Source: Vulcanimicrobiota bacterium
GTDB lineage: Bacteria > Vulcanimicrobiota > Vulcanimicrobiia > Eremiobacterales > Eremiobacteraceae
Assembly (NCBI GenBank): GCA_963812135.1
Contig: CAWETU010000001.1
Location: 1,376,001-1,440,000, forward strand
Length of the DNA: 64,000 nucleotides
Direction: 5' to 3'
Of the stretch, positions 15,317 to 61,617 are shown piece by piece. How positions within the stretch are numbered: the stretch's first letter is position 1; each line of letters starts with the position of its first letter. Made by a program: the position numbers and the translations under genes. The notes under the pieces were generated by a model that was not told the origin of the DNA, did not search any database, and worked only from the letters and a program-made list of their open reading frames with translations.

Positions 15317-15879
15317 AGCGGCCGGCAAAGAAACGGTCGTCGAAAGTCGACCGCGACCAACGGTCGAGTAAACTCGACCGCTACAAGGACGAGTTTGTCG
15401 TCGTCTATCCGGGCAGCTTCGACCCCGTGACGTTCGGCCACTTGGACATCGTCAAGCGCGCTGCGACCCAGTTCCCGCGCGTGATGGTCGCGGTCGTCGC
15501 CAATCCAAGCAAATCGCCGATGTTCAGCCTTGCCGAGCGCGTCGCGATGCTGCGCGAGGCATGCGCGGGGCTGCGCAACGTGGAAGTCGAGTCGTTCGAG
15601 GGGTTGCTGGTCGACTACGTACGTGCCGCCGGCCGAGCGCTGATCGTCAAAGGGCTGCGCATCGTCTCTGACTTCGAGCACGAGTTTTCCATGGCGCTGC
15701 TCAACCGCAAGCTGCGCGGCGGCGCAGACACGATCTTCATGCCGGCGAGCGCGAGGTTCGCATACGTCTCGTCGTCTTCCATCAAAGAAGTGTTCTCGCT
15801 CGGCGGCGATGTCGCCGAATTTGTGCCCAGCTCGGTGTTGCGCCGCATGCAGGCACGCCGGGCCAAGGGGAAGAGGTAA
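15313..15879 (+). CDS. coaD: Pantetheine-phosphate adenylyltransferase with repeat-derived N-terminal extension
   Basis: YPGSFDPVTFGH, KGLR..SDFE, VSSS. Confidence 0.95.
   Translation: MKRPAKKRSSKVDRDQRSSKLDRYKDEFVVVYPGSFDPVTFGHLDIVKRAATQFPRVMVAVVANPSKSPMFSLAERVAMLREACAGLRNVEVESFEGLLVDYVRAAGRALIVKGLRIVSDFEHEFSMALLNRKLRGGADTIFMPASARFAYVSSSSIKEVFSLGGDVAEFVPSSVLRRMQARRAKGKR
15334..15384 (-). repeat. Two tandem REP-like GTAG-hairpin units (27-nt period) inside coaD
   Basis: CGGTCGTCGAAAGTCGACCGCGAC (15334-15357) and CGGTCGAGTAAACTCGACCGCTAC (15361-15384). Confidence 0.8.
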
Positions 15880-15884
15880 ACTAG

Positions 15885-16364
15885 ATGAGCGTCTATACGG
15901 TGATCGACAAACTGGAAGCGACGGTCAAAGAGGGCGTATGGCTGCCGTTCGGCGCGCGTATCGTCAGCCAAGACCGGCTGCTCGATCTCGTCGAAAAGCT
16001 GCGTTCGACGCTGCCCGACGAAGTGAGCCGCGCCAAAGCCGTGACCAAAGAGAAAGACCGCTTGATCGAGGACGCCAAGTCGCAAGCGGCCGCCATGATG
16101 ACCGAGGCGTCGACGGCGAAGACCCAACTGCTCTCCGATGCGGAGATCACCCGCCAGGCGCAAGAGCGCGCCGAGCAGATCCTGTCGCAGGCGGAAACGC
16201 AGGCGCGCGAAGTGCGCCGCGGGGCGGAGCAGTACGCGGACGGCGTGCTGGCGGCGCTTGACACGAGTCTTGGCAACGCATTGGCTGCGGTCCACAAGGG
16301 CAGGGAGCAGCTGGCGGCCAGCCTTTCGAGCAACGGATCTCCGAAGTCGCGCGAGCGGACGTGA
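15885..16364 (+). CDS. Coiled-coil DivIVA/ATP-synthase-b-like conserved protein
   Basis: Coiled-coil pattern (LP.E...A, A..YAD.VL); usual position after coaD. Confidence 0.7.
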   Translation: MSVYTVIDKLEATVKEGVWLPFGARIVSQDRLLDLVEKLRSTLPDEVSRAKAVTKEKDRLIEDAKSQAAAMMTEASTAKTQLLSDAEITRQAQERAEQILSQAETQAREVRRGAEQYADGVLAALDTSLGNALAAVHKGREQLAASLSSNGSPKSRERT

Positions 16365-17350
16365 CGGAGGATCCGCCCGCAAAACCTTCACTCCTTCGCC
16401 TTCTGTCCGCCGCGCTGGTCGGCGTGATCATCGCGGCGTTCTTGTTCCTCGTGCCGCTGCCGTTCCTCATCTTCGCGCCCGGTGACGCGATCGACCTTAA
16501 TCCGTTGGTCATCGTGCCGGATCGCTCGCCGCCGCCGGGCACGCTCTTCCTCACCGATGTGAAAGTGATGCCGGGGCGCCCGGCGTTCTATCTGGCCGGC
16601 AAGCTGCTGCCGGGGTTCGAAGTCGTGCCGCGCCTGCAATACGCGGGCAGCTCGACCGATGCGCAATTCGACCGCGAGTTGGAAGACGCGATGAAAGAAA
16701 GCCAGATCGTCGCGCAAGTGGTCGCGGAACGCGCCGCTGGTTTGCCCGTCAAAACGAAGACGACGACGTCGATCGTCGAGGTCAGAAAAGGGTTTCCGGC
16801 GGAACATTGCTTCAAGGTCGGTGACGTCATCGAGTCTATCGACGGCACGCCGCCGGTCAACGCTGGATCGATCGCCAAAGCGGCGGCGACGAAGCCGGCC
16901 GGCGTGGCGTTCGACTTTGAAGTGGAACGCGACGGCGCGCCCAGGAGCGTGAGCTGTCACACCGCGCCTTATAAAGGAAAGCGCCTGTTCGGCGTGATCG
17001 TCAGCTCGCGGACCAAACTCATCTCGTTGCCGGTGCACGTCACGTACAAGGTCAAGGACATCAACGGATCGTCGGCCGGACTGATGTTCGCGCTGCAGAT
17101 CTTCCGCACGCTGACCGGCAAGCCGCTCGCCGGCGGCAAGAAGATCGCCGGCACCGGCGTGCTGGCGTCAGACGGTTCGGTGCTGCCGGTCGGCGGTGCG
17201 CTCGAGAAGCTGCACGCGGCCATCGCGCAAGGCGCGCAGATCTTTCTGGTGCCGAAAAGCGATTATCCGCGGATCGCCGATACGCCAGGCGTGAAGATCA
17301 TCCCGGTCGGTTCGTTCGACGAGGCGCTGCGACAGCTGAAGGTGTTGTAG
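16361..17350 (+). CDS. Membrane PDZ + Lon-like (S16) protease, YlbL family
   Basis: N-terminal TM helix, PDZ, GSSAGLMF (Ser), AGTG, VGGALEK (Lys). Confidence 0.85.
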   Translation: MTEDPPAKPSLLRLLSAALVGVIIAAFLFLVPLPFLIFAPGDAIDLNPLVIVPDRSPPPGTLFLTDVKVMPGRPAFYLAGKLLPGFEVVPRLQYAGSSTDAQFDRELEDAMKESQIVAQVVAERAAGLPVKTKTTTSIVEVRKGFPAEHCFKVGDVIESIDGTPPVNAGSIAKAAATKPAGVAFDFEVERDGAPRSVSCHTAPYKGKRLFGVIVSSRTKLISLPVHVTYKVKDINGSSAGLMFALQIFRTLTGKPLAGGKKIAGTGVLASDGSVLPVGGALEKLHAAIAQGAQIFLVPKSDYPRIADTPGVKIIPVGSFDEALRQLKVL

Positions 17351-17357
17351 GTGTCGC

Positions 17358-17696
17358 TTACGCGCTGAGGCGCTGCGACGATTCGAGCGCGGCGATCGCG
17401 CCCTCGACGCTTGCGTGGATGCGGAAGATGCGGTCGAACGCGGTGAGCGCGAGCGTCTCGCGCATCGACGGGTCGTCGACGACCAGGCGAACGGCGCCGC
17501 CAGCTTCGCGGACGACGCGATTGGCGATCACGAGAGATTGGAGCGCCGGCGTGTCGAGCACCGGAAGTCCGCGCAGATCCACGACGTGCAAGTAGCGGCG
17601 CCGTGCGATGTGGCCGCGGAAGCGGCGGCCGATCGTGGCGCGGGCTGTCTCGTCATGCGCGGCGAATTCGGTGACGGTGACCAATGCGTGCTCCAT
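17358..17696 (-). CDS. STAS-domain protein
   Basis: VVDLRGLPVLDTPAL..GGAVRLV..LTAFDRIF. Confidence 0.7.
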   Translation of the reverse strand: MEHALVTVTEFAAHDETARATIGRRFRGHIARRRYLHVVDLRGLPVLDTPALQSLVIANRVVREAGGAVRLVVDDPSMRETLALTAFDRIFRIHASVEGAIAALESSQRLSA

Positions 17697-17790
17697 AGCG
17701 ATAAGACGACGGTTCTAACGCGGCTCCCTCGTCTATAAGACGAGCAAATCGGGCAAAGCGTTTTCTCCAGCGTCCCGCAGGGAGGCACGT

Positions 17791-17820
17791 TTGACATCAT
17801 AGTTCGCCTTTTCATATAAT
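17791..17820 (+). promoter_or_regulatory. Consensus sigma70/SigA promoter of the yceD-rpmF-fab operon
   Basis: TTGACA (17791-17796), 18-bp spacer, TATAAT (17815-17820). Confidence 0.8.
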
Positions 17821-17836
17821 GATGCAAGTCGTTTGC

Positions 17837-17864
17837 GGCCCGTCATCAGGACGGGCCTTCGTTT
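17837..17864 (+). promoter_or_regulatory. Leader hairpin, terminator/attenuator-like
   Basis: GGCCCGTC-ATCAG-GACGGGCC followed by TTCGTTT. Confidence 0.5.
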
Positions 17865-18607: not shown

Positions 18608-19696
18608 ATGAACGGCGTCACGATCACCGGGGTCGGCGCGTACGCGCCGCCAGGCATCCTCACCAACGAGGATCTGGAGAAGCTTGTCGACACGAGCGAC
18701 GAGTGGATCGTGCAACGCACCGGCATGAAGCGGCGCCACATCGCCGGGCCGAAGGAAGCCACCTCCGATCTCGCGGTCCCCGCCGCGTTGGCCGCGCTCG
18801 ACGCCGCCGGCCGCACGCCGAGCGACATCGAATGCCTCATCGTCGCCACCGCGACTCCCGACTATCTCTTCCCCGCCACCGCATGTCTGGTCGGCGCGCG
18901 TCTGGGCATTCCGGGCGTCGCGGCGTTTGACGTTTCGATCGGCTGCTCGGGGTTCGTCTATGCGCTCACCACGGCGGCGGCCCTCATCCGCTCGGGTGTC
19001 TACCAGCGCATCTTGGTCATCGGTGCTGAGACGCTGTCGAAGATCGTCGACTACACCGATCGCAAGACGTGCGTGCTGTTCGGCGACGGCGCCGGCGCGG
19101 TGATGGTCGAGCGCTCCGAGGAAGATTGCTTCTTGGGCAGCGACCTGGGCGCGGAAGGCTCCGATCCGAGCGTCTTGTATTTGCCGGGCGGCGGCAGCCG
19201 CTCACCACTCAATCGCGCGCTCAACGGAAACGGTCGAATAAATTCGACCGCTACAGATGGTCAAACGAGTTCGACCGCTACCGAGCGTCTGGGCTACATT
19301 CAGATGCAGGGCCAGGCCGTGTTCAAGTTCGCCGTCCAACAGATGGCCGGCTCGGTGCAAGCGGCGCTGGCCAAAGCCGGATTGACCGTCGCCGACGTCG
19401 ATTTCGTGGTGCCGCACCAGGCGAACAAACGCATCGTCGACGCGACCATGAAGATGTTGCAATTGCCGCTCGACAAGTGCATCACGAACATCGACGAATA
19501 CGGCAACACCTCGTCTGCTTCGATCCCGCTCGCGCTGGCCGACTCCATCCGCGCGGGTCAGGTGAAGAAGGGCAACGTCGTGGTCTTCGTGGCGTTCGGA
19601 GCGGGCCTGTCGTGGGGCGCTGTCGTCTGGCGCTGGCTCGGTGCACCCGTCGGCGAAGCGCGCGCCGCGGCGCCCGCGGGCGCGGCCCAAGCCTAA
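18608..19696 (+). CDS. fabH: 3-oxoacyl-ACP synthase III with repeat-derived loop insertion
   Basis: GCSGF (Cys), FGDGAGA, HQAN, GNTSSAS. Confidence 0.95.
   Translation: MNGVTITGVGAYAPPGILTNEDLEKLVDTSDEWIVQRTGMKRRHIAGPKEATSDLAVPAALAALDAAGRTPSDIECLIVATATPDYLFPATACLVGARLGIPGVAAFDVSIGCSGFVYALTTAAALIRSGVYQRILVIGAETLSKIVDYTDRKTCVLFGDGAGAVMVERSEEDCFLGSDLGAEGSDPSVLYLPGGGSRSPLNRALNGNGRINSTATDGQTSSTATERLGYIQMQGQAVFKFAVQQMAGSVQAALAKAGLTVADVDFVVPHQANKRIVDATMKMLQLPLDKCITNIDEYGNTSSASIPLALADSIRAGQVKKGNVVVFVAFGAGLSWGAVVWRWLGAPVGEARAAAPAGAAQA
19231..19281 (-). repeat. Two tandem REP-like GTAG-hairpin units (27-nt period) inside fabH
   Basis: CGGTCGAATAAATTCGACCGCTAC (19231-19254) and TGGTCAAACGAGTTCGACCGCTAC (19258-19281). 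Confidence 0.8.
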
Positions 19697-48966: not shown

Positions 48967-50001
48967 CTAGCGCGAGTCGACCGTCAGCGTGAATCCGTTA
49001 TACGCCGAGAAACAGCGGTCGTCGCCGCCGTTGAAGTCAGCGTGGTCGGGGACCAGCACGAAACCGAAGTTGGGCCGCGTTCCAGCCGCCCATTGTTGGA
49101 CCGCTTGCGTCACATCGATGCTCATGTAGATCCCGTTGCTAATGGTAAGCGGGCCAAAACGCTCGGTATCGCCTGGTTGATTCGCGCGCAGCGTCAAATA
49201 CGGTGCTCCAAGCAAGGCGAGCGGGCTGTCCGGATTGTTCATCCAGATCGCCGTCGCGAGCTGCAGTTGCGAAGCGCACGAAACGTTGCCACTGAGCGGG
49301 TTGCCCTGCGCTGTCGACTGACTGCGCGAGACATAGAACGTCATCGTCGCATCGACGACTTTGACGCCTTTCGCGAAATCGCCGAACCAAACGCCTGAGC
49401 GGTAGACGACACCGCAGCGTGTGCCTTGCGCGAAATTCCACCCGACCAGCGCCTCGCCGGCGCGCAGCATGGGCGCCACCGGATGCGTCGTGCCGCCGCA
49501 CGCGGGATTGACGTAGTACTTCGTCGTGATGTTCGTCTGATTCAAAACAGTTCGCTTCGCGCCGCTCGGCGGCGTTGGCGTTGGCGGCGCCGTCGCCGAA
49601 GGGCCGACGAATGGGCTCGAAAGCGGCACGGCCAGTGCGGGCGTAGGCGTTGGACTTGAAGTAGGCGATGATGTCGCCACTGGCGTTGGAGTCGGCGTCG
49701 GCGATGCGGTCGGCGTCGGGGTCGGCGCTACGGTTGCCGCCGGCGTCGGCGTTGCACTTGGCGACGGCGTGGGCGTCGAAATAAGGGGCTTCGGCGTAGC
49801 CGTCGGCGCATGGGTGGGCGTGGCTGTCGGGGCAGGGGTTGGAGTAGGCGTCGGTGTTGGTGTTGGCGTCGAGGTCGGAGACGCGAACGCGACGACTGAC
49901 GCTGCCGGCATCGGCGCGCCGCCCGCGAATGCGACGATCGGTACGAGCGTCAGCAGTGACGCCAGCGCGATCCTCTCAAGCCTCATTCGTGCCTGCCTCA
50001 T
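48967..50001 (-). CDS. Secreted protein with long Pro/Thr linker and DNRLRE-like C-terminal domain
   Basis: Signal peptide, (PT)n repeats, IDVTQAVQQWAAG..NFGFVL. Confidence 0.7.
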   Translation of the reverse strand: MRQARMRLERIALASLLTLVPIVAFAGGAPMPAASVVAFASPTSTPTPTPTPTPTPAPTATPTHAPTATPKPLISTPTPSPSATPTPAATVAPTPTPTASPTPTPTPVATSSPTSSPTPTPALAVPLSSPFVGPSATAPPTPTPPSGAKRTVLNQTNITTKYYVNPACGGTTHPVAPMLRAGEALVGWNFAQGTRCGVVYRSGVWFGDFAKGVKVVDATMTFYVSRSQSTAQGNPLSGNVSCASQLQLATAIWMNNPDSPLALLGAPYLTLRANQPGDTERFGPLTISNGIYMSIDVTQAVQQWAAGTRPNFGFVLVPDHADFNGGDDRCFSAYNGFTLTVDSR

Positions 50002-50161
50002 ATGAGCGAAAAACGCCGATTCCTATCGAAACGGCCGCAAATGCCGCTCACCCGTGAAACGTAGCAGCTCTGCGCTCAGTTCCTTCCAGCATGCCGAAGG
50101 CCGCACCCGCACGAGGACGACCGCGGGGCAGTCGCCCGCCGGGAAAGAAACAACCATCACC

Positions 50162-51145
50162 ATGGCGCACGCCAAGCAGTTCGAAGTGGCCCTCGTCCAG
50201 TTCGCCCCGCGCAAGGGCGACGTTGAGGCGAACTTCGCCTCGATCGGAGACGCGTTTGCCGCGCTCGCCGACGGGCGCAAAGGCTTTCCGCAGGTCGTGG
50301 TCTTCCCCGAGGCGTCGCTCTCGGGGTACTTCGTCGAAGGCGGCGTGCGCGATGTGAGCATGACGGCGCAGGAGCTGCTCAAGCGCCTTACGCGGCTCGC
50401 TCGAGCGCACGCGCCAAAGCGCGCGGAGTTCGACGTCGTCGTCGGCTTCTATGAGATCAGCGCCGACGACAAGCTCTACAACAGCGCCCTCTACGCCACC
50501 CTTGGCGCCACGCCGCGGCTGCGCCACGTGCATCGCAAGCTCTTTCTGCCGACCTACGGCGTCTTCGACGAGGAGCGCTTCGTCACGCGCGGGCGCAGCA
50601 TCGGCGTCTTCGACACGCCGCACGGCCGCGCATCGATTTTGATCTGCGAAGACGCATGCCACTCGCTCGCGACCACGGTCGCTGCATTGCGCGGCGCGCA
50701 GATCATTTACGTCCCCAGCGCGTCGCCCGGTCGCGGCATGGAAGATTTCGAGCCGGCGAACGTCCGGCTGTGGCGCGAGATCATCCGCGTCGCCGCCGCC
50801 GAGCACGGTGTTTTCATCGCGTACGCTGGACTTGTGGGGTTTGAGGGCGGCAAGGGATTCACGGGGTCGTCGCGCCTCGTCGGGCCGTTCGGCGACCTGC
50901 GCGTCGAAGCGCCGTTCATGGGCGACGCGTTGTTGCGCGCCCCGGTGAATTTGGAAGACGTCGCCGTTGCGCGGGCCGCATTGCCCGCGCTTGGCGATCT
51001 TGAAGCGAACCTTCCCGAACTGGTGCCCGCGCTGCTCGCGATCGAAGCAGAAGACGGTCGCGCCAGCGGCGCAGGCAAGAAGAACGGTCGGATACATTCG
51101 ACCGCTACGGGCCGCGCCGCCGCGAAGGCAAAGCGACGGCGATGA
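50162..51145 (+). CDS. Nitrilase-family glutaminase subunit of NAD synthetase
   Basis: FPE / HRK.FLPTYGVFDE / ICED catalytic triad; ATGA-coupled to nadE. Confidence 0.85.
   Translation: MAHAKQFEVALVQFAPRKGDVEANFASIGDAFAALADGRKGFPQVVVFPEASLSGYFVEGGVRDVSMTAQELLKRLTRLARAHAPKRAEFDVVVGFYEISADDKLYNSALYATLGATPRLRHVHRKLFLPTYGVFDEERFVTRGRSIGVFDTPHGRASILICEDACHSLATTVAALRGAQIIYVPSASPGRGMEDFEPANVRLWREIIRVAAAEHGVFIAYAGLVGFEGGKGFTGSSRLVGPFGDLRVEAPFMGDALLRAPVNLEDVAVARAALPALGDLEANLPELVPALLAIEAEDGRASGAGKKNGRIHSTATGRAAAKAKRRR
51085..51108 (-). repeat. REP-like GTAG-hairpin unit in the 3' end of the glutaminase gene
   Basis: CGGTCGGATACATTCGACCGCTAC. Confidence 0.8.
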
Positions 51146-51996
51146 AGACGTCCTTCGACGTCGTCGAGGCGCCGGCGCGCGACGACACGCCCACCATCGA
51201 TCCCGCGCTTGTCGAACGCTGGCTTGTCAACTTCATCCGCGACGAGCTCGTCCGCCGCCGCGGCATCCAAAATGCGGTGATCGGCATTTCGGGCGGCGTG
51301 GACTCGGCGGTGGTGGCTTATCTGTGCGCGCGCGCCCTCGGACCGGAGCACGTCTTGGGCATGCGGTTGCCCTATCGCACGTCGAGCGGCGAGAGCCTCG
51401 ACCACGCGGCGCTCGTCATCGCGGAAACCGGCATCCGCGAGCGGCTTGTCGACATCAGCGAAGCGGTGGACGGCTACCTCGCGCTCGAACCTGACGCCTC
51501 GGCGCAACGCCGCGGCAACGTCATGGCGCGCATGCGCATGATCGTGCTCTTTGATCAGTCGGCGAAGATCAACGGCTTGCCGATCGGCACGGGCAACAAA
51601 TCAGAGCGCATGCTCGGCTACTTCACGTGGCATGGCGACGACTCGCCGCCGATCAACCCGATCGGCGATCTTTTCAAGACGCAGGTGTGGACGCTCGCGC
51701 GCCACCTCGGTGTGCCGGACGTCATCATCGACAAGCCCGCGACCGCCGATCTCATCCGCGGCCAGACGGACGAAGAAGACCTCGGCATCACGTACGCGCA
51801 GGCGGACAAGATCCTCAACCGTCTGCTCATGGGCTACACTGTCGAGGACATCATCGCCGCCGGCTACCCAGGGCCCGAGGTCGAACTCGTCAAGCGCCGC
51901 GTCGACTCCACGCACTGGAAGCGCCACCTGGCGACGACCGCGCTGATCTCGACCACGGCGATCAACGAGTTCTATCTGCGGCCGGTCGACTATTAA
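51142..51996 (+). CDS. nadE: NAD+ synthetase
   Basis: GISGGVDS, GNVMARMRM, GTGNKSE, DLFKTQV, QTDE. Confidence 0.95.
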   Translation: MKTSFDVVEAPARDDTPTIDPALVERWLVNFIRDELVRRRGIQNAVIGISGGVDSAVVAYLCARALGPEHVLGMRLPYRTSSGESLDHAALVIAETGIRERLVDISEAVDGYLALEPDASAQRRGNVMARMRMIVLFDQSAKINGLPIGTGNKSERMLGYFTWHGDDSPPINPIGDLFKTQVWTLARHLGVPDVIIDKPATADLIRGQTDEEDLGITYAQADKILNRLLMGYTVEDIIAAGYPGPEVELVKRRVDSTHWKRHLATTALISTTAINEFYLRPVDY

Positions 51997-52018
51997 AACA
52001 CGCATCCAATAGAGGAGC

Positions 52019-52420
52019 TTGTCTATGTCTTTGAAGCTCGGCACCGTCGGGCATTTCGGTATCGCTGTCCGCGATCCCAAAAAAAGCGCCCAGTGGTGGA
52101 TCAAGACGCTCAACGTGAAGAAAGAATTCGATTTCCCAGGTGGCGTCGTCGTCGGCTCGGACGCGGTCGGCATCGTGCTGTTCAAGGGAACCCCGCGCCC
52201 CGAAGCGATCCATCACATCTCGTTCGACCTGCCCAGCATGCGCGCGCTGCACGCCGCGCTCGCCGAGCTTAAACGCAAGGGCGTCGAGCTGGAAGACCCG
52301 GGCGAGGAGATCGGCCCCGAGGGCCCCGGCTCGAAGAACATGGGACTGTGGTTCCGCGACCCCGACGGCTATCGCTGGGAACTTAGCGTCCTGGCAAAAC
52401 CCACGCGACCGCGCCGCTAG
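52019..52420 (+). CDS. VOC/glyoxalase family protein
   Basis: HFGIAVRD, HHISF, FRDPDGYRWE. Confidence 0.85.
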   Translation: MSMSLKLGTVGHFGIAVRDPKKSAQWWIKTLNVKKEFDFPGGVVVGSDAVGIVLFKGTPRPEAIHHISFDLPSMRALHAALAELKRKGVELEDPGEEIGPEGPGSKNMGLWFRDPDGYRWELSVLAKPTRPRR

Positions 52421-52434
52421 AAGGAGGCACACCG

Positions 52435-52830
52435 GTGTCCAGATATCTGCACACTTCGATTTTCGTCAACGACATGGACGAGTCGATCGGTTTCTACACC
52501 GAAAAGCTCGGGCTCAAGCTGCTCGACAAAGCGCATTATCCCGGCAACGCCGACATGGCGTTCGTCGGACGCGACTGGAACGCGTACATCGAGCTCGTCT
52601 TCGACCTTGAGGAACATCCACCGTACGAAGTGGGCAACCGCTACGAACATCTCGCGCTCGAGGTCGACGGTCCGGTGGCCGATGTCGTCGAGCGTCTCCG
52701 GCGCGACGGCGTCAAGGTGGTGAAAGAACCGAAGAAGTCGCCGGGCGGTACTCGCTCGATCGCGATGATCGAAGACCCGAACGGCATCGTCGTCGAACTG
52801 CTCGAGCCCAAGTCGGGCGCCATCAAGTAA
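52435..52830 (+). CDS. Lactoylglutathione lyase-like VOC protein
   Basis: LHTSIFV, FYTEKLG, HLALEV, EDPNG..VEL. Confidence 0.85.
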   Translation: MSRYLHTSIFVNDMDESIGFYTEKLGLKLLDKAHYPGNADMAFVGRDWNAYIELVFDLEEHPPYEVGNRYEHLALEVDGPVADVVERLRRDGVKVVKEPKKSPGGTRSIAMIEDPNGIVVELLEPKSGAIK

Positions 52831-52835
52831 CGCGC

Positions 52836-54078
52836 GTGGCGAGCGCCGAGATCATCACGGTCGGCACCGAGCTGTTGCTCGGCCAGCTGGTCGACACCAA
52901 CACCACCTACATCGCCAAAGCGCTCGCCGATGCGGGCATCGATGTCCACCGTCAGACGTCCGTCGGCGACAACGCCGAGCGCATCGCCGGCGCGGTGCGC
53001 GACAGCTTGCGCCGGGCCGACTGCGTCATCGTCGCCGGCGGACTCGGACCGACGGTCGACGATCTCACGCGTGACGGCGTGTCGCAGGCGACGGGCCGTC
53101 CGCTCGAACTGCACGAGCATAGCCTCGAGCGCATCCGCGCGATGTTCGCGCGGCTCGGGCGGCCGATGGCGGACAATAACCGGCGCCAAGCCCTAATGCC
53201 TAAGGGAGCGCAGGTGCTCGACAACGAGCAAGGCACGGCGCCAGGCTTCATTATAGAAGAAGGCAGCCACGCGGTCATCGCGGTGCCAGGCGTGCCCCGC
53301 GAGATGCGCGCGATGATCTCGCAACAGGTGGTGCCTTGGATCGTCAAACGCTACGGCGTCGAGGGTACGATCGTCACACGCGTTCTCAAGACGATCGGCC
53401 TGGGCGAATCTGATCTGGATAGCCGCATCGCGGATCTGTTCCACGCGGGCGTGAACCCGAGCATCGCGGTGCTCGCGCACTATGGTCAAGTCGACGTGAA
53501 GCTGACCGCGAAAGCCGACACGCGCGAGCTGGCGATCGCAATGATCGACAAGCTGGAACCGCTCGTGCGCGAGCGGCTGCCTGACTGCATCTATGCGGTC
53601 GACGGCGGACCGATCGAACAAGTCGTCGGCGACATGCTGCGCGCGCGCCGCTGGACGTTGGCGACGGCGGAATCGTGCACCGGTGGGCTCATCGCATCGA
53701 CCATCACGACCGTGCCCGGTTCTTCGGACTACTACCTCGGCGGCGTCGTGTCGTACGCGAACGAGGCGAAGCTGGATTTTCTCGACGTCGCGCCCGATCT
53801 CGTCGAGCACCACGGCGCAGTGAGCGCGGAGGTGGCCACGGCGATGGCGGTCGGCGTCCAGGGCCGGCTACACGCGTCGTGCGCGATCGCCGTGACCGGC
53901 GTCGCAGGGCCGGGCGGCGGCAGCGAGGAGAAACCCATCGGACTCGTCTACGTCGCACTGGCCACGCCCGATGGCGGCGCCGACGTCCGCAAACTGATGT
54001 TGCCGGGCGATCGAGAAATGGTCCAGCGCCGCGCGGCGATGGCGGCGTCTCACCATGCTCTGGAAGGCGGTTCGCTGA
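52836..54078 (+). CDS. cinA: CinA (MocF domain plus PncC NMN deamidase); apparent +1 frameshift ~54048 reads through into the next gene
   Basis: GTELLLG..DTN, GGLGPT.DD, PGVP.EM, AESCTGG, TGVAGP; shifted frame ends LTMLWKAVR-TGA 54076-54078. Confidence 0.85.
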
Positions 54079-54638
54079 TGCCTCCGACGATCGAAACGCC
54101 GCGGCTTACCCTGCGAACGTTCAGCGAAGCGGACTTCGAGCCGTACTTCGAGCGGCTGCTCTCACAGCGCGCCGTCATGCGCTATCTCTCGGGCACCGGC
54201 GAGCCTCGCACGCGTGAGGAGGCAGCTGTCGCTTTTGCTCGCTGGACCTCACCGGACCGCGATCCCCGCGACCGGATGTGGGCCGTCGTCGAGCGAGCGT
54301 CCGGCGAGTTGCTCGGCCACGCTGTGCTCCAGCGCCTCGAGCAGAGCGACTTGATCGAAGTGGGCTACGCCTTGGGCGAGCGTTTCTGGGGCCGCGGTTT
54401 TGCCACCGAGGCCTCCCGCGCGGCGGTGGATTTCGGCTTCGCGACCACCGACCTTAACCTGATCGTCGGCATCGCGCGACCTGAGAATGCCGCCTCGCGA
54501 CGGGTGCTGGAGAAGACCGGCTTGAGCTACGCCGGCATGCGCCGATACTATAATTTCGACGTCGCGTACTACGAGTTGCTGCGCACCGACCACAAAGCTG
54601 CGAGCGGACCACAAAAAGGTCAGCCCGGTTCGCCCTGA
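54078..54638 (+). CDS. RimJ/RimL-type GNAT acetyltransferase
   Basis: IETPRLTLR, EVGY, WGRGFATEA, N.ASRRVLEK; TGATG coupling to cinA. Confidence 0.8.
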   Translation: MPPTIETPRLTLRTFSEADFEPYFERLLSQRAVMRYLSGTGEPRTREEAAVAFARWTSPDRDPRDRMWAVVERASGELLGHAVLQRLEQSDLIEVGYALGERFWGRGFATEASRAAVDFGFATTDLNLIVGIARPENAASRRVLEKTGLSYAGMRRYYNFDVAYYELLRTDHKAASGPQKGQPGSP

Positions 54639-54653
54639 GAAAAAGCTGAAGGA

Positions 54654-56159
54654 ATGAAACGCAGTCTAACCAGTTCGTGGTTCCTCTTTGCCTTGATCGC
54701 CGTTGCATCACTTGCGTCGATGGCGGGATCGTGCGGTGGTGGCAGTAGCGGCGGAAGCATGGGCCCCACGCCCCCTCCCGGGCCGACGCCGTTGATCGGC
54801 TGCAATCCTGGTGCGATGAACCTCTCGAGCGCGAGCGAATCGCAACCGCTGAGGCTGCGCTATCCGCAACGCGCTCCGCGCGCGCCATACGTTTTGGGCA
54901 AACTCGCAGTGAAGTTCACGGGCACCGGCAGCGAACCGGAGATCGGCCAGGCCATGGCGCGCATGCGCGCCGTTTTGGCTCAACCGCCGAGCAGCCTCGG
55001 TTACGCGGTGTACACTATTCCGGAGAGTCAGAATCCGGTCACCGCAGCGGCCGAGCTGATCGGCACCCGCGGCATCGCCGACGTGAAGCCGCTCCTCGCT
55101 CGCTACATCCAGGACACCATCCCGAACGATCCTTTTTTCGGCACTCCCTCTCAGCTGACTTCGCCGCAGCTGGTCAACCCCGTTCAGTGGGATATGTACA
55201 AGACCCTCATGCCGACGACGTGGGATACGTGGAAAGGCAGCGCCTCGGTCACGATTGCGATCATAGACACCGGGTATGACGCGAACAACATCGACATCTG
55301 CTCGAAGGTCATCAACTCGGCGGTGTTTGATTTGGGCGGAGGAGCGCAGGACGTCCCGGCAACCGTCCAAGACATCGACGGTCATGGCAGCAACGTGAGC
55401 GGCATCGCCGCATCCGTGACCAACAACGCGACGCGCTTCGCCGGCGTCGGCTGGAACACCAACCTTATCGAAGTGCGCGTTTTCCCGACGCCGTCTCCGT
55501 CGAACCCGACGCCTGGCGCCTCCAATCTCGATATCGCAGCGGGCATCACGTGGGCGGCGACGCACGGCGCGAGCGTCATCAGCATGAGCCTTGGCGCGCA
55601 AGGCGCATGTGACTCCGCCGAGCAAAACGCGATCAACTCCGCGGTGGGAGCAGGCATCGTGGTCGTCGTGGCTTCAGGCAACGACGGTCTGGGCACCATC
55701 AGCGCGCCAGCGGATTGCCACGGCACCATTTCAGTCGGCGCCAGCGCGCTCGACGACACCGGCGCCCACACGAACGCGCCGATCGAGTTCGTCGCCACCT
55801 ATTCCAACTGGGGCACCAACGGCGACGGGCTCACACTCATCGCTCCAGGCGGCGACCCGAGCATCTGCACGACCAGCTGCGGAACGCCCGACTATCTCCA
55901 GTGGATCACAAATGCCTATTCGACCACGGCGACGACCTGCTGTTCGAACCCAGGTCCAGGGACCGGCATTTTCATCGCGGGCACGTCGCAAGCCACGCCG
56001 CACGTCGCGGGCGTCGCGGCCCTGATGCTGGCGAAACATCCGGGTCTCTCGGCTTCGGCGGTGAAGACACTCTTGCAGATGTTCGCCACCGATATCGGCG
56101 GCGGCGTCAAACAAGGCGCAGGGCGATTGAACGCCTTTGCGACTCTCTCCAATACGTAA
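54654..56159 (+). CDS. Secreted/lipoprotein subtilase (S8 serine peptidase)
   Basis: IIDTG, GHGSNVSG, ASGN, GTSQATPHV; signal peptide with Cys. Confidence 0.9.
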   Translation: MKRSLTSSWFLFALIAVASLASMAGSCGGGSSGGSMGPTPPPGPTPLIGCNPGAMNLSSASESQPLRLRYPQRAPRAPYVLGKLAVKFTGTGSEPEIGQAMARMRAVLAQPPSSLGYAVYTIPESQNPVTAAAELIGTRGIADVKPLLARYIQDTIPNDPFFGTPSQLTSPQLVNPVQWDMYKTLMPTTWDTWKGSASVTIAIIDTGYDANNIDICSKVINSAVFDLGGGAQDVPATVQDIDGHGSNVSGIAASVTNNATRFAGVGWNTNLIEVRVFPTPSPSNPTPGASNLDIAAGITWAATHGASVISMSLGAQGACDSAEQNAINSAVGAGIVVVVASGNDGLGTISAPADCHGTISVGASALDDTGAHTNAPIEFVATYSNWGTNGDGLTLIAPGGDPSICTTSCGTPDYLQWITNAYSTTATTCCSNPGPGTGIFIAGTSQATPHVAGVAALMLAKHPGLSASAVKTLLQMFATDIGGGVKQGAGRLNAFATLSNT

Positions 56160-57576
56160 CGTCGTCGTAGCGGCGCCACCGCGAGCAGGCGTCGCTCCGT
56201 CAGCCCACCTCGCTCGAGTCCTCGGATTCCTCGACCTGTCGATACTCTCGTCGGCGAGCATGGCGCCCGCGTATTCGATCGCGGCGACGTTTGGATTGAT
56301 GATCGCCGCCGCTGGCGCAGGCGCGCCGTTGGCGCTCGTCATCCTCACGGTGCCGGTGATGTTCATCGCCGTCGCGTTCCACCGCATGTGCGAAGAACAC
56401 CCGGACGCCGGTTCGACCTACGCATGGGCGCGTCTCGCGTTCGGCACTCGCGCGGGCGCGCTGTCCGGCTGGATCGTGATGCTGTCGTACTTCGGCGCGG
56501 CGATGGCCACCGTCGTGCCGGCCGGCGTCTACACGCTGCGCTTCTTGAGCGATCCGCTCCACTTGGTGCCGATGGCGGCCGCAGACAATCCGTTCGCAGT
56601 CGCAGCGGTCGGCGGTGCGTGGGTCGTCGCGGCCGGCGTGCTGCTCGCTTCCGGCATGCGCCCCACTGCAGATGCCTCGGCGGTGTTCCTGATCCTGGAG
56701 GTCGGCGCGCTTCTGCTTTTCGCAGCGTTCGCACTGATGCACCCGGTGGCGGTGGGCGGTCACATCGGTTCTCTTTTCACAATCGGCCCGAGCGGCGGCG
56801 CCGGATTCCTCGCCGCGATGGTCCTCGCGATCTGGGTCGCCGACGGCTGGGAGATATCCACGTACACCTCTGAGGAGAACACCGGTTCCACGCGCCAGCC
56901 AGGCCGCAGCGCGCTCGTCGCGCTGTTCGCCACGACCGCTCTCATGCTGGTATGCGCGGTGGCGTTCATGCGCGTCGCGCCGCTCTCGGGACTCGCAAGC
57001 CACGCGACGGATACGTTGGCGTACGTCGCGGACCAGCTCGGTGGCGGGTGGCGCACGTGGGTGATGGTCATGACCGTCATCGTCTCCACCGGCGCGACGT
57101 TGTGGACGGGTCAGCTCGGGTTGTCACGGCTGCTTTTCTCCGCCGCGCGCGACGGCTTGCTTCCCAAAGCGTTCGGCCGCGTACACCATAAATTCGGCAC
57201 GCCGGCGTTCAGCATCGGCGTCGTCACCGTCGGCGCGCTCGGGTTGGCGTTGCTCACCGGTCTTGAACCCAACGTGCGCGCGAGCCTCGACGACGTCGAC
57301 AACATCGTCTCTATCCTGCTCGGCTTGACGTTCATCGTGACCGGCGCCGCGTGCGTCGTGTACTTCGTGCGCAAAGGCACGCCGTGGTTCGATCTCACGC
57401 GCGTGATCTTGCCGGCGATCGGCACCGTCGGTCTCGTCTATCTCCTCATGGCGAATTTCTCCGCACAAAGCGGCGTCGACCGCTGGGCGGCGATCGGTTG
57501 CATCGTGCTCGGCGTCGTCGTCGCGCTGGTGAGCCCCGCGCTGGCCGCGCGTTTCGCGAAGACCAAAACAGCTTGA
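56137..57576 (+). CDS. APC family amino-acid permease (start uncertain)
   Basis: About 12 TM helices, PDAGSTY, GWE, EE, SRLLFSAARDG.LP..FG.VH..FGTP. Confidence 0.85.
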   Translation: MRLSPIRNVVVAAPPRAGVAPSAHLARVLGFLDLSILSSASMAPAYSIAATFGLMIAAAGAGAPLALVILTVPVMFIAVAFHRMCEEHPDAGSTYAWARLAFGTRAGALSGWIVMLSYFGAAMATVVPAGVYTLRFLSDPLHLVPMAAADNPFAVAAVGGAWVVAAGVLLASGMRPTADASAVFLILEVGALLLFAAFALMHPVAVGGHIGSLFTIGPSGGAGFLAAMVLAIWVADGWEISTYTSEENTGSTRQPGRSALVALFATTALMLVCAVAFMRVAPLSGLASHATDTLAYVADQLGGGWRTWVMVMTVIVSTGATLWTGQLGLSRLLFSAARDGLLPKAFGRVHHKFGTPAFSIGVVTVGALGLALLTGLEPNVRASLDDVDNIVSILLGLTFIVTGAACVVYFVRKGTPWFDLTRVILPAIGTVGLVYLLMANFSAQSGVDRWAAIGCIVLGVVVALVSPALAARFAKTKTA

Positions 57577-58415
57577 TCCACGCGCTCTTGCTCGCGGCGA
57601 CGCTGGTCGCAGCGGCGACTCCTTCGCCTGCGCCGTCCGCGGCCGCACCTATCGCATCGCCCACGGCCGGCGCCGCGGCTACTCCCGCGGGCACGCCGAC
57701 GCCGTATCGGACGTCGCCGCCGAACGCGCACGTCTGGCAAGGCATCACGCCCGGCGGCTCCGCGGCTGCGGTGCATGCAAAGCTCGGCGTGCCGCTGCTC
57801 TCGCGCGTGCTGCCCGACGGCTCGATCATCAATTGGTATCCCGGCCCGACCACCAACGCGTACATGATCGTCGGCGAGCGCGATAAGGTCGTGCAGTACG
57901 TGCGCGCGTTTCCGATCTCGCTTGAGGGAACGCTCGACGGTTTGAAGGACCCGTATGGTGTGTCGCCCGGTCTCGACTATACGGCGATCAAAGCGCTGCG
58001 CGGCGAAGCCAAAGAGGCCCGCCAGGTCGCCCCGGCGACAGTTGTCGTCGTGTATCAAGATAGCCAGGCTTTTGTGTGGCTATACGAGCTGACGGCGGAG
58101 GGCGTGCACGCGATTTCGCTTTATGACGCGAACGCGCCGAAGGCGAATCCCGGAGCACCGCCGGTGAGCGATCCGCACGACGGCGCCAGCATGGGTCGCG
58201 CGTACATCGTGCACGCCCGCAACGAACAAGAAGGCCTGCGTTTCGAGCGATATTATGCCACGCATCGCGGCGGCTGCTCCGTTTGGACCGTCGCCAACCA
58301 GACGCTGCTGTCCATGGGCGCGCGCAAGGTCGACCAGCTCGACCTGCAGTGCGAAGATAACAAAGACCAGACGAGCATGTTCTTCGACGTGACATCGTTC
58401 ATGGGCAAAAACTAG
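57573..58415 (+). CDS. Secreted hypothetical protein (paralogue A)
   Basis: Signal peptide, Pro/Thr linker, repeated SmpA-like units, C-terminal HDG.S..RA..C..W..C..MFFD. Confidence 0.65.
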   Translation: MIHALLLAATLVAAATPSPAPSAAAPIASPTAGAAATPAGTPTPYRTSPPNAHVWQGITPGGSAAAVHAKLGVPLLSRVLPDGSIINWYPGPTTNAYMIVGERDKVVQYVRAFPISLEGTLDGLKDPYGVSPGLDYTAIKALRGEAKEARQVAPATVVVVYQDSQAFVWLYELTAEGVHAISLYDANAPKANPGAPPVSDPHDGASMGRAYIVHARNEQEGLRFERYYATHRGGCSVWTVANQTLLSMGARKVDQLDLQCEDNKDQTSMFFDVTSFMGKN

Positions 58416-58511
58416 GGCGTCGTGCCCGCTGGCTGCCGTGAGGCGCCAAAGGCCGGCAAACGCGGTCTGCCGAACTCGGACAAACGCACCCATCCGCGGA
58501 GGACTCAAGCA

Positions 58512-59798
58512 ATGGCACGGCCGATGACCCTGACCGAAAAGATCCTGGCGGCGCACGCAGGCAAAGCCGACGTCGCGCCAGGCGACATCATCTCGATCGA
58601 CCTTGACCTGGTCATGGCCAACGAGCTGTCGGCCGCCGTCGCGATCACCGAATTCCACAAGATCAAAGGCGCGTCCAAAGTTTGGGACTCGCACAAGATC
58701 GCGTTGTGCCCGAGCCACTTCACGCCTAACAAAGACATCGCCACGGCCACCCTGTCGACGATGATGCGAGATTTCGCGAAAGAACAGCAGATCGAGCACT
58801 ACTTCGAAGTCGGCCGCGGCGGCATCGAGCATGTCGTGCTGCCGGAAAACGGCATGGTCGGCCCCGGCATGACGATCATCGGCGGCGACAGCCATACGAC
58901 GACCTACGGCGGTCTCGGCGCGTTCGCCACGGGCGTCGGCAGCACGGATATCGCCGCCGCATTTGCGACCGGCGAGATGTGGGTGCGGGTACCGCCTTCG
59001 ATCAAAGTCAACTACGAGGGCGCGCTGCGCCCGTATGTCTCCGGCAAAGATCTCATCCTGACGACGGTCGGGAGGCTCGGCGTCGACGGCGCCATTTACG
59101 CGGCGATCGAATTCGTCGGCCCCGCGCTCACAGCATTGCCGATCTCAGGCCGCTTCACGATGGCGAATATGTCGATCGAAGCAGGCGCGAAGAACGGCAT
59201 TTTCGAGGTCGATGCGACCGCGGAGGCGTACTGCGCGGCGGTTGGCAAAAAGGACTACACGATTTATCGCGCCGACAAAAACGCTGAGTACCAGTCCACC
59301 GTCACGATCGACTGCTCGATCATCGAACCGCAAGTCGCGCTGCCGTGGCTGCCTGAGAACACGAAGAACGCCTCCGACCTGAACGATATCAAGATCCATC
59401 AGGCCGTGATCGGCACATGCACCAACGGCCGCATCGAGGACATGCGCCAAGCTGCAGAGGTCCTCAAAGGACGCAAAGTCCATCCCGACGTGCGCTGCAT
59501 CGTGATCCCCGGCAGTCAAAAAGTGTACAAGCAATGCATCATCGAGGGTCTGACCGAGATCTTCATCGACGCCAACTGCGTCGTGTCGACGCCGACCTGC
59601 GGTCCGTGCGTGGGCGGCCATATGGGCGTGCTCAGCGAAGGCGAGCGCTGCATCTCGACGACGAATCGTAATTTCAAAGGCCGCATGGGTCACGTCAAGA
59701 GCGAAGTATATTTGACGGGCCCGTACGTCGCAGCCGCTTCGGCGGTCGCCGGATTCATCACCAACCCCGAACAGCTCGGCAGTTTGGTCACGGCCTAG
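58512..59798 (+). CDS. leuC: 3-isopropylmalate dehydratase large subunit (LeuC/HacA type)
   Basis: MTLTEKIL, DSHT, IGTCTNGR, CGPCVG, STTNRNFKGRMG. Confidence 0.9.
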   Translation: MARPMTLTEKILAAHAGKADVAPGDIISIDLDLVMANELSAAVAITEFHKIKGASKVWDSHKIALCPSHFTPNKDIATATLSTMMRDFAKEQQIEHYFEVGRGGIEHVVLPENGMVGPGMTIIGGDSHTTTYGGLGAFATGVGSTDIAAAFATGEMWVRVPPSIKVNYEGALRPYVSGKDLILTTVGRLGVDGAIYAAIEFVGPALTALPISGRFTMANMSIEAGAKNGIFEVDATAEAYCAAVGKKDYTIYRADKNAEYQSTVTIDCSIIEPQVALPWLPENTKNASDLNDIKIHQAVIGTCTNGRIEDMRQAAEVLKGRKVHPDVRCIVIPGSQKVYKQCIIEGLTEIFIDANCVVSTPTCGPCVGGHMGVLSEGERCISTTNRNFKGRMGHVKSEVYLTGPYVAAASAVAGFITNPEQLGSLVTA

Positions 59799-59812
59799 CG
59801 GGCGGGCACCGT

Positions 59813-60611
59813 TTGCTGGCTGCTCTCCTCGCCCTCGGAATCTTCGCCGCGGCTCCTTCGCTCAGCGCGACTCCGACGCCGAGCCCCACGCCATACAAGC
59901 CGCTTGCCATTCCATTGCCCGGCGCAACGCCCTGGGGCCCGCTGTCGTTGGCCGGCGTGACGCTTGGTGAAACCGGCGACGCGGTGCGCGCACGGCTCGG
60001 CGAACCGGCGCTCGCAAACGACAAACCCGAGATCTCGATCTGGACCTATCCGCTGGACAACAAACACGTCGCGCTCAACATCTTCTTGCAGCGCGGGCGG
60101 GTCACCAGCCTCAGCATCGCGCTCACCGGCGGCGCTAAGCAATCGCTGTTCGACCGATCCGTTCGGCGTGCATCTCGGCGACGGCGCCGACGCGATGTTC
60201 GCCGCGCGCGGTCAGCCGCACGACATGATCGAGAACCGCAACATCTACGCGACCGGACCCGGCTTCGATTGGGTCTATCAATTCGATAAGGGCATCGCCG
60301 CGTCGATCTTGGTCGAGGCGAACATCGCGCTGAACGGTCCGCTCCCTAGTCCGGTCGCGGGACCGCCCGGGCACGACGGCACCAGTCTCGAGCGAGCGAT
60401 CAGATTCAAAGTGGCGAATCTGGCGCAGGCGAAGCTCTACGAGGCCGTGTTCCTCGCGCGTTTTTGCGATGGCAAAGGCACGTGGCAGCCCTCGGCGGTA
60501 TCGACCCTCGCGAATCCGCAAACCGGCGCCGTGATCGTCGCCTATTCGGTCACGTGTTCCAACACGCTTCGCAAGGCGATGTTCTACTTCGATCGCAGCC
60601 ATTTGCGATGA
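59813..60611 (+). CDS. Secreted hypothetical protein (paralogue B); apparent frameshift ~60150
   Basis: Signal peptide, PT linker, GVTLG..VRARLG, DPFGV, HDGTSLERA..C..W..C..FYFD. Confidence 0.6.
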
Positions 60612-61036
60612 ATAACCTTCTTGTCGTTGCGATTACAGCGACTTTGCTCGGCGTCGCGATGCCCGCTGTCGCGCCGCCGGACCCCACCGGCGCGCTTGCC
60701 TTATGCGCTGGGCAGGTCGATCGCATCGCGCAATACGGCAATTACGCTCTGATCAATTGCGATTTCGGACAAACGGGGGGAGAGATAGCCGCTTCATATT
60801 CGCCGTCGACTTCGAAGTGGCACGTCGTCGTGGCGGGCGGCGGCGTAGTAGATTCGAAGTACCTGGTCGCCAAAGGCATACCGCAAAACGCCGCCACCTT
60901 CTTGGTCGGCGCGATGGTCACTTGTCCTCCGCGCTTGAGGCAACCCCTACCCAAGACCACTCGAATAGCTCCGCACACGTTCTTATGTTTGGAAAATGGG
61001 CCGCCTGCCTCATCGCCCCCGACCCGAATGCCTTGA
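60608..61036 (+). CDS. Small secreted Cys-containing protein
   Basis: Signal peptide, 4 Cys; ATGA overlap with the upstream gene. Confidence 0.6.
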   Translation: MNNLLVVAITATLLGVAMPAVAPPDPTGALALCAGQVDRIAQYGNYALINCDFGQTGGEIAASYSPSTSKWHVVVAGGGVVDSKYLVAKGIPQNAATFLVGAMVTCPPRLRQPLPKTTRIAPHTFLCLENGPPASSPPTRMP

Positions 61037-61082
61037 ACGACCAAGCGCGGGACCGAGTGACAGGGGCGGCGAAACGGACGGC

Positions 61083-61604
61083 ATGATTCTCAAAGGCACA
61101 GCCCACAAGTATGGCAAGAACGTCGACACCGACGTCATCATCCCCGGCCGGTATTGCAACCTGATCGACCCGGTCGAGCTCGGCAAGCACGCGCTCGAAG
61201 ATCTCGATATCAATTTCGTCAAAAAGGTCAAACAGGGCGACTTGATCGTGGCCGACACTAATTTCGGCTGCGGCTCGTCGCGCGAGGTGGCCGCCGTCGC
61301 GCTCAAGGGCGCCGGCGTGTCCGGCGTCGTCGCGAAGTCGTTCGCGCGGATTTTCTACCGCAATTGCATCAACACGGGTCTGCCCATCTTCGAATGCCCT
61401 GAAGGCGTCGACGGGATCAGCGACGGCGACGCGATCACGGTCGATGCGGATGCGGGCACGATCACCAATCAGACGACCGGCAAGTCGTTCAAAGCGACGC
61501 AGTTCCCGAAGTTCATGCAAGATCTGATCGCCAAGGGCGGTCTGCTGCGCTATGCGGAGCAGCGCTTGGCCGAGAAGAATGCCGCGAAAGGCACAGCCGA
61601 GTGA
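61083..61604 (+). CDS. leuD: 3-isopropylmalate dehydratase small subunit
   Basis: NVDTDVIIP, NFGCGSSRE, SFARIFYRN, GGL. Confidence 0.9.
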   Translation: MILKGTAHKYGKNVDTDVIIPGRYCNLIDPVELGKHALEDLDINFVKKVKQGDLIVADTNFGCGSSREVAAVALKGAGVSGVVAKSFARIFYRNCINTGLPIFECPEGVDGISDGDAITVDADAGTITNQTTGKSFKATQFPKFMQDLIAKGGLLRYAEQRLAEKNAAKGTAE

Positions 61605-61617
61605 ACTCGGCCGCTAC
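61594..61617 (-). repeat. REP-like GTAG-hairpin unit containing the leuD stop codon
   Basis: CAGCCGAGTGAACTCGGCCGCTAC; compensatory stem change relative to the other copies. Confidence 0.7.

Follow-up and report, generated by a model that had tools for sequence, protein, structure and literature searches.

The 64,000-nt stretch analysed here (the window; positions 1376001–1440000 of contig C1 of assembly G000) carries six copies of a 24-nt palindromic repeat with the consensus CGGTCGAATAAATTCGACCGCTAC. The repeat probably represents a genus-restricted family of repetitive extragenic palindromes (REPs) tagged with GTAG in uncultured Eremiobacterota, and its units are most likely non-autonomous hairpin elements of the kind moved by REP-associated tyrosine transposases (RAYTs). 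The family, the covariation of its stem, its placement, its real host genes, its lineage-specific gain, its switches of orientation and its decay were observed directly. G000 comprises 2.79 Mb in six contigs (64% GC, 98.4% complete) and was compared with binned assemblies of relatives, of which G001–G006 belong to the same genus. Copies were counted by an ungapped Hamming scan with the two strands of the palindrome merged, and copies bearing indels are missed.

Hairpin family and genomic placement

Each unit consists of an 8-bp stem, a TAAA loop and a CTAC tail (GTAG on the opposite strand), that is, CGGTCGAATAAATTCGACCG followed by CTAC. The scan of G000 returned 57 exact copies, 209 copies at up to five mismatches and 222 at up to six, while one reversed and three shuffled control patterns gave 0–1 matches at up to five mismatches. 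The 209 copies are spread over four of the six contigs at about one copy per 13 kb, 27% of them (57/209) are exact, and all of the most frequent 14-mers of G000 come from the repeat. The genome also contains many 14-base C/G homopolymer words (30 counts) and a second, rarer palindromic repeat around CCCGAGCGCAGCTCGGG (about 15–17 copies).

The initial annotation, made from the window, had described a GTAG-headed hairpin family with a covarying stem, in which the hairpin rather than the encoded peptide is conserved, and the genome-wide copies bear this out. Among the 222 copies, the tail is CTAC in 174 and CTCC in 17 (CTCC is also common in G005 and G006 among the matches listed), and each stem position is paired in 202–213. 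Stem pair 8–13 is A–T in 163 copies, G–C in 38, C–G in 4 and T–A in 3, and pair 4–17 is T–A in 190 and C–G in 15. The hairpin is stable as DNA (−8.8 to −9.1 kcal/mol, z about −6), and no Rfam family matches the 24-nt repeat. Flank preferences are weak, with A or T before the unit and A (69%) and T (50%) after CTAC. The downstream flanks contain no T-run behind the hairpin; an intrinsic terminator was rejected on this ground and because neither window copy in the scanned stretch (50000–64000) was called terminator-like. Neighbour pairs within 200 nt among the 209 copies are direct in 23 cases and inverted in 4, the remaining copies being singletons. The direct pairs are spaced at 27, 30–33, 36 or 39 nt, and the 27-nt period expected at first is thus one of several.

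Genes were called with our own crude codon log-odds caller trained on long open reading frames (ORFs), whose start codons are unreliable; it found 2587 genes in G000 (88.4% coding, median gap 30 nt). By these calls, 102 of the 209 copies are intergenic, 44 overlap a gene end and 63 lie wholly in ORFs. The earlier proposal that the repeat lives in genes therefore fails for the genome as a whole, as the copies that are intergenic or merely overlap a gene end make up 146 of the 209, in a genome that is 88% coding. Random placement would put 88% of the copies in genes (binomial p 4e-86), and the observed share of about 30% in ORFs indicates that the repeat is strongly depleted in coding DNA but still well represented there. 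The calls tend, if anything, to underestimate the in-gene share, since three in-frame GRINSTAT copies at C1:2159925–2160026, with a frame break upstream, were scored as intergenic by our caller. In same-direction gaps the median distance is 6 nt to the upstream stop and 42 nt to the next start, and half of the copies between same-direction genes (48 of 96) fall between −11 and +5 nt relative to that stop. The 41 kb of convergent gaps hold 35 copies versus 12 in the 84 kb of divergent gaps. The extragenic copies thus behave as classical REPs, and the element is mainly extragenic with a large in-gene minority.

All six window copies share one orientation relative to transcription, as first noted, but this does not extend to the genome, where the copies in same-direction gaps are mixed (62 opposite to the genes, 34 in the same direction), as are those within genes (47 same strand, 16 opposite). 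A genome-wide orientation tied to transcription is refuted by the mixture in the gaps. The strand of the repeat is nevertheless uneven along C1, with 104 + versus 12 − copies at 1.0–2.37 Mb and 27 + versus 36 − before 1.0 Mb. It does not follow gene strand, since at 1.6–2.37 Mb there are 242 + and 473 − genes but 75 + and 7 − repeats. Copy density on C1 peaks at 1.8–2.37 Mb. With dnaA at C1:306.7 kb, AT skew and gene orientation put the terminus near 1.5–1.6 Mb. An orientation coupled to replication was rejected because the + bias at 1.0–2.37 Mb does not flip at this inferred terminus; GC skew is too weak to help.

Uptake signals such as the DNA uptake sequence (DUS) of Neisseria and the uptake signal sequence (USS) of Haemophilus are likewise found in genes, where they prefer certain frames, and behind genes as inverted pairs. 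One dominant, short, genus-specific sequence with preferred frames in coding DNA would suit such a signal, but we consider this function very improbable: the density is only about one copy per 13 kb, the 88% of the genome that is coding holds only 30% of the copies, the conserved feature is a compensated hairpin with a GTAG tag, and the strong strand bias (104 versus 12 over C1 1.0–2.37 Mb) departs from the near-even strand use expected of an uptake signal.

Copies within genes

Among the 63 copies wholly in ORFs, 41 are separated from the start by at least 90 nt and from the stop by at least 30 nt; of the others, 15 are close to the 5′ end and 7 to the 3′ end. The 47 copies on the strand of the host gene comprise 32 GRINSTAT-like and 10 RSNKFDRY-like readings and 5 in a stop-containing frame; all five of the latter are in OGDH linkers, where CAA stands in place of the loop TAA and the unit, repeated every 39 nt, encodes VEQARPL. 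The 16 copies on the opposite strand comprise nine VAVEFIRP-like, five SGRIYST-like, one ERSNSFDR and one unresolved. Nine same-strand genes stop at the loop TAA or TGA, and 27 opposite-strand genes stop at the TAG of GTAG (800 TAG stops in G000 in total). The three reading frames originally assigned hold for the window, while genome-wide all six are used, four as peptide and two as stops. Many copies are translated or supply stop codons, in agreement with the initial proposal that the repeat adds peptides and stops to housekeeping genes. Copies in genes have diverged further than intergenic copies (mean 2.37 versus 1.41 mismatches; 10/63 versus 37/102 exact).

The hosts are real genes, as 47 of 50 host ORFs have Pfam domains (E < 1e-5). 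In 15 genes, a total of 23 copies fall between or inside Pfam domain matches. These hosts are an RluD-like synthase, SelB, a PMT-family transferase, NuoC, a rubrerythrin–VIT1 fusion, RibH, PurL, FabH, CarB, ValS, an OGDH E1/E2 fusion, CysS, an amine oxidase, a class A PBP (PBP1) and an AMP-binding enzyme. The other in-gene copies are in N- or C-terminal tails or behind signal peptides. Insertions at gene termini, domain linkers and surface loops would survive selection as eight-residue peptides (GRINSTAT, RSNKFDRY, VAVEFIRP, SGRIYST), since 24 nt is a multiple of three and four of the six frames are open, and in the other two frames the unit would supply a stop (loop TAA or TGA, or the TAG of GTAG).

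That the peptide itself is selected, the GRINSTAT-like segment being a functional protein module, is almost certainly wrong, even with this frame in 32 of the 47 same-strand copies. The same DNA is read in four frames, frame and orientation differ at the same linker in sister species (below), the nucleotides are conserved without synonymous variation, half of the copies are untranslated and the host proteins are unrelated.

In the window, the unit is present on the + strand at all six sites initially listed, each in or overlapping a real gene (coaD, fabH, the gene for the glutaminase subunit of NadE, and leuD; Table 1). The frames first given are also correct, with RSSKLDRY in CoaD, GRINSTAT and GRIHSTAT in FabH and the glutaminase, and the loop TGA as the leuD stop. 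Only two of the six exactly match the consensus with R/Y positions first drawn for them. The full pattern at up to three mismatches gives three matches in the window versus none in 100 shuffles, and its 3′ half at up to one mismatch gives seven matches versus a mean of 1.83.

Table 1 Copies of the 24-nt repeat in the window and their host genes.
Feature	Position in window	Strand	Description
Degenerate copy	15334..15357	+	5 mismatches, tail CGAC; translated as RSSKVDRD in the extended CoaD N-terminus
Copy of the AG/CT stem subfamily	15361..15384	+	2 mismatches; translated as RSSKLDRY, likewise in the extended CoaD N-terminus
Exact copy of the genome consensus	19231..19254	+	Reads GRINSTAT; FabH loop between two KAS-III domains
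Degenerate second FabH copy	19258..19281	+	5 mismatches; intact only in the 3′ half TTCGACCGCTAC; reads GQTSSTAT
Copy	51085..51108	+	2 mismatches; reads GRIHSTAT in the CN_hydrolase C-terminal tail, 37 nt before the stop
Variant copy	61594..61617	+	6 mismatches, four of them forming two compensated stem pairs; remainder in the 24-nt leuD–leuB spacer
coaD (host)	15313..15879	+	188 aa; CTP_transf_like from residue 31; ATGA overlap with upstream rsmD-like gene
fabH (host)	18608..19696	+	362 aa; both KAS-III domains
CN_hydrolase gene, NadE glutaminase (host)	50054..51145	+	Followed by NAD synthase gene 51142–51996 with ATGA overlap (split NadE)
leuD (host)	60996..61604	+	Aconitase_C; stop is the loop TGA (61602–61604) of the 61594 copy

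The second CoaD copy folds as DNA at −9.1 kcal/mol (z −6.1), and the second FabH copy forms no stable hairpin (−2.1 kcal/mol, z 0.2). The CoaD ORF has no in-frame ATG, GTG or TTG from the copies to the conserved VVVYPGSFDP, which places both copies within the ORF, provided that it begins at a canonical start codon. An AlphaFold2 model of FabH (21-sequence alignment, pTM 0.79) has pLDDT < 50 at residues 200–233, which include both copies. The model thus lends modest support to a flexible loop at this position; the support is only modest because four further segments of the model also have low confidence. The label "glutaminase" is fair, as the CN_hydrolase and NAD_synthase ORFs constitute a split glutamine-dependent NadE, and the same split with ATGA or GTGA overlap occurs in five other genomes of the genus.

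Contigs from three further soil runs (about 93% identity) cross the CoaD and FabH copies without large gaps. Joints in public contigs at 15384/15387 and 19229/19231 are assembly jumps induced by the repeat, and no insertion polymorphism at the CoaD and FabH copies was readable from the short, noisy public-contig pieces.

Several other features were noted in or near the window. Two more copies lie just past its end, at 64051–64074 and 64090–64113 (G000:C1:1440051–1440113), 39 nt apart, with 4 and 2 mismatches and one of them with a CAAG loop. The leuB ORF (61629–62536) has only 285 aa and matches positions 1–239 of the 348-position Iso_dh profile; the remainder may lie in another frame (frameshift or assembly error). 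A 1648-aa ORF on the − strand (43701–48647) occupies the only low-GC stretch of the window (57% versus about 65%).

Orthologous sites in the genus

At up to one mismatch, the 24-nt repeat was found in 4 of 31 genomes, all of one genus, with 130 matches in G000, 61 in G001, 107 in G005 and 99 in G006 and none for the controls. It was not found in the genus members G002–G004, and the 24 genomes from other genera in the family and class likewise gave no match. The search included three unpublished genomes (G010, G013 and G016), and the outcome is the same without them. Among public species genomes, exact copies occur in one metagenome-assembled genome only, titled Candidatus Eremiobacteraeota, and viral contigs contain no exact copy. 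Orthologues for the comparisons below were drawn from tblastn-anchored ORFs.

Three of the window sites are shared with G005 and G006, in answer to the question raised by the initial annotation, while the CoaD copies are specific to G000 (absent from the five other genus genomes compared). In FabH, G000, G005 and G006 have the repeat at the same loop, and G002–G004 have an insert of similar length without it. This stretch spans 58–67 residues in the six insert-bearing genomes and 41–43, with no insert, in G001 and in 14 genomes of eight other genera (unpublished genomes excluded), which places the origin of the insert within the genus. In the CN_hydrolase tail, G005 and G006 have a copy and a half copy, and G001–G003 have none. 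At the leuD–leuB junction, the repeat gives the TGA stop in G000, G005 and G006, and look-alike remnants are found in G002 and G003. The junction of G001 is one clean empty site, with TATA where G005 has T, 24 nt and ATA. As a separate observation, leuD and the leuB ATG of G001 (L161, on G001:C5) are in the same frame with no stop between them in the aligned stretch, which could reflect either gene fusion or an error in sequencing. In G002, a stop codon is also followed by a remnant that ends in GACCGCTC.

Elsewhere in the genomes, the state of the site differs even between carriers. NuoC has exact copies in G000, G005 and G006 and other sequence in G002 and G003; the nuoC loop of G001 (L064) contains an apparent copy whose loop is interrupted by an insertion of about 11 nt (CGGTCGAATGA...TCGACCGCTCC). 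ValS carries a forward copy in G000 and G001 and a reverse copy in G005, and is seven residues shorter, without the repeat, in G002 and G003. The CysS copy is forward and degenerate in G000 and reverse in G005 and G006. The rubrerythrin–VIT1 linker has a pair of forward copies in G000, a single reverse copy in each of G005 and G006, and no copy in G002 and G004. A periplasmic binding protein has exact copies in G000 and G001 and a degenerate one in G005. In the OGDH linkers, G000 has five copies, all in the VEQARPL frame; G005 and G006 have two or three, which use the GRINSTAP frame; G001 has two, and G002–G004 lack them. The SelB copies occur only in G000 among the genomes compared.

Differences exist even within the assembly. 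Contigs C3 (97.3% identity) and C4 (91–94%) are strain variants of C1:1928625–1949365, and the assembly therefore has more than one haplotype there. The variant C4 has no copy at C1:1933265; C4 also lacks about 440 nt present at C1:1942778–1943227. A comparison of filled and empty sites for eight copies at C1:2106001–2126000 gave no clean empty site, with flanks that were unalignable or had copies or remnants. Taken together, the orthologous sites show that copies were gained after speciation, that the same permissive positions were occupied repeatedly in differing orientations and frames, and that the repeat decayed where the family died out.

Probable mobilisation and known repeat systems

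The repeat is a palindrome, ends in GTAG, occurs in many copies and lies mostly outside genes behind ORFs, as do the GTAG-tagged REPs. This family would have arisen and spread as a non-autonomous single-strand hairpin moved by RAYT (HUH/Y1)-type transposases. The initial annotation had proposed RAYT mobilisation; we infer it, and do not count it as observed, because the cognate enzyme is not in this assembly. A tie is provided by G001, which encodes a RAYT (NF047646, 99.6 bits; L001:1380–1975, G001:C3 at about 119.6–120.2 kb) flanked on both sides by the GTAG repeat GGCCGATCTAAAGATCGGCCCCTAC. The GGCCGATCTAAAGATCGGCCCCTAC family is a different REP of the same build as the CGGTCGAATAAATTCGACCGCTAC family, with about 90 copies in G001 and none in G000, G002, G003, G005 and G006, and no copy of the CGGTCGAATAAATTCGACCGCTAC family lies within 1.5 kb of the G001 RAYT gene. 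Among the eight closest metagenomic relatives of this RAYT, six (84%, 60%, 60%, 51%, 46% and 41% identity) are flanked by hairpins consisting of GTAG, 0–2 nt, a 7–9-bp stem and a short loop, which is TTTA in five cases. The CGGTCGAATAAATTCGACCGCTAC family has exactly this build, and a resemblance of sequence architecture, not linkage, thus ties it to the RAYT clade of G001.

Several observations weigh against this interpretation. The RAYT profiles PF01797 and NF047646 had no match in G000, G005 and G006 even at E ≤ 1, nor did the G001 RAYT protein used as a query against these three genomes, and none of 72 metagenomic RAYT loci carries the CGGTCGAATAAATTCGACCGCTAC repeat. A RAYT gene flanked by the same REP (a REPtron) was accordingly not found in G000, G005 or G006, although such a locus missing from binned assemblies is not proof of absence. 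Further, 57 of 209 copies are exact although no RAYT was found, and the copies are mostly singletons or direct tandems, not the inverted REP doublets (REPINs) held to be the mobile unit (4 inverted versus 23 direct pairs). Orthologous copies are near-perfect while the flanking loop sequence is unalignable, a pattern not accounted for by simple insertion long ago. A single clean empty site is the basis for the 24-nt unit and for the lack of a target duplication. The placement counts depend on our crude gene caller, and some of the 15 copies near 5′ ends may sit upstream of true starts.

Part of this evidence could instead point to a DNA or RNA hairpin used by the host (a 3′-end mRNA stabiliser, a translation brake at stops or a protein binding site), kept and perhaps spread without a RAYT and held uniform by selection or gene conversion, with the in-gene copies as a tolerated by-product. 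Such a role, which we regard as unlikely, would account for exact copies in a genus where three of four carrier genomes have no RAYT, for near-perfect orthologous copies between diverged flanks and for the half of the same-direction-gap copies close to the upstream stop. It would also fit the DsbH-like gene and SelB, in which the repeat stands where relatives have an equal-length non-repeat stretch. It is at odds with the mixed orientation to the transcript, with the 63 in-ORF copies, where a 3′-end role is meaningless, with the lack of a T-run and with the three genus members that manage without the repeat and have only decayed remnants; and the RAYT may just be missing from the binned metagenome assemblies.

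A bolder account, which we think improbable as a whole, keeps the selfish repeat but takes the genomes to be truly RAYT-free: the family would be kept uniform, and still be colonising, through another mobiliser or through copy-to-copy conversion that overwrites old or look-alike sites. The repeat would then also have supplied most of the lineage-specific loops and linkers found in core enzymes of the genus (FabH, NuoC, ValS, CysS, SelB and OGDH), decayed copies turning into ordinary Ala/Pro/Gly-rich linker.

An element of the RAYT-moved kind remains the preferred explanation, and the known GTAG-tagged REPs are its closest counterpart. According to the available part of the study that defined them (Di Nocera et al., 2013; BMC Genomics 14:522, PMC3733652, by Di Nocera, De Gregorio and Rocco), their termini often give flanking ORFs a TAG stop, tags vary at positions 2–3, singletons dominate some families and REPtrons are missing in some species. 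REPs wholly within ORFs occur in several species there, with the caution that N-terminal cases may be misannotation. Its supplement gives about 70 intragenic entries in Opitutus terrae, including 2-oxoglutarate dehydrogenase E2, PurL and an NADH dehydrogenase subunit, and hosts in other species include tRNA synthetases and pseudouridine synthases. These entries contradict the earlier statement that in-frame copies are known mainly for Rickettsia palindromic elements. In line with what this material describes, the present family is a short stem–loop with a terminal GTAG in tens to hundreds of dispersed copies, lies mostly behind ORFs in convergent or same-direction gaps with GTAG often giving a TAG stop, has a subset wholly in ORFs with 7–8 residues per unit, varies its tag at positions 2–3 (here CTCC/GGAG) and has no RAYT locus in some species. 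Unlike the families described in that material, it is a new sequence family from a phylum not covered there (Eremiobacterota), about 30% of its copies are in ORFs of a 2.8-Mb genome, and it is present mostly as singletons and head-to-tail arrays. The cross-species evidence for re-occupation of the same loop in another orientation or frame, and for decay in non-carriers, also sets the present case apart from the described ones.

The available part of a preprint on REPINs (Bertels et al., 10.1101/2021.07.10.451892) reports that REPIN populations shrink and decay after RAYT loss. This fits G002–G004 and leaves the well-kept populations of G000, G005 and G006 as the one real oddity. Like the REPIN–RAYT systems described there and by Bertels and Rainey (2011), the family is inherited vertically as a genus-level population around a master sequence, eroded remnants persist in relatives that lack the intact family, and one genus member has a related RAYT locus. 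Unlike them, master copies are abundant in three carriers without a RAYT, and inverted doublets do not characterise the family.

Two further systems bear comparison on more limited grounds. In the single-strand transposition of IS200/IS605 elements, the recognised end is a hairpin with an adjacent tetranucleotide. The repeat has the same hairpin and tetranucleotide, and its single clean empty site suggests insertion without target duplication, but the 24-nt unit has no transposase gene and no cargo and its strand bias does not flip at the inferred terminus. Rickettsia palindromic elements, in work by Ogata and colleagues in 2000, are reportedly about 100–150 bp long, encode 30–50 residues and belong to an obligate intracellular alphaproteobacterium. 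The present repeat is like them in standing in frame in functional housekeeping genes at permissive sites, and unlike them in being mainly extragenic and, at 24 nt, outside that range of length. In a literature search judged at the level of result listings, no published account of the CGGTCGAATAAATTCGACCGCTAC family, or of any REP in Eremiobacterota, was found. Work by Liang and colleagues in 2015 reportedly dealt with REPs near stop codons. Intragenic REPs and TAG stops derived from GTAG are already known, and no new class of element is established here.

The family gives a clear and countable example of how a very small selfish repeat feeds sequence into proteins that are essential, in a phylum for which metagenomes are almost the only source. 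In practice, automated gene calling and alignment will place starts, stops and loop alignments wrongly at repeat sites. Since the genus contains carriers, a carrier with a RAYT of a sister family, and non-carriers with remnants, it forms a natural series in which one can ask how REP populations persist and die, whether they need a RAYT, and how inserted repeats become ordinary linkers.

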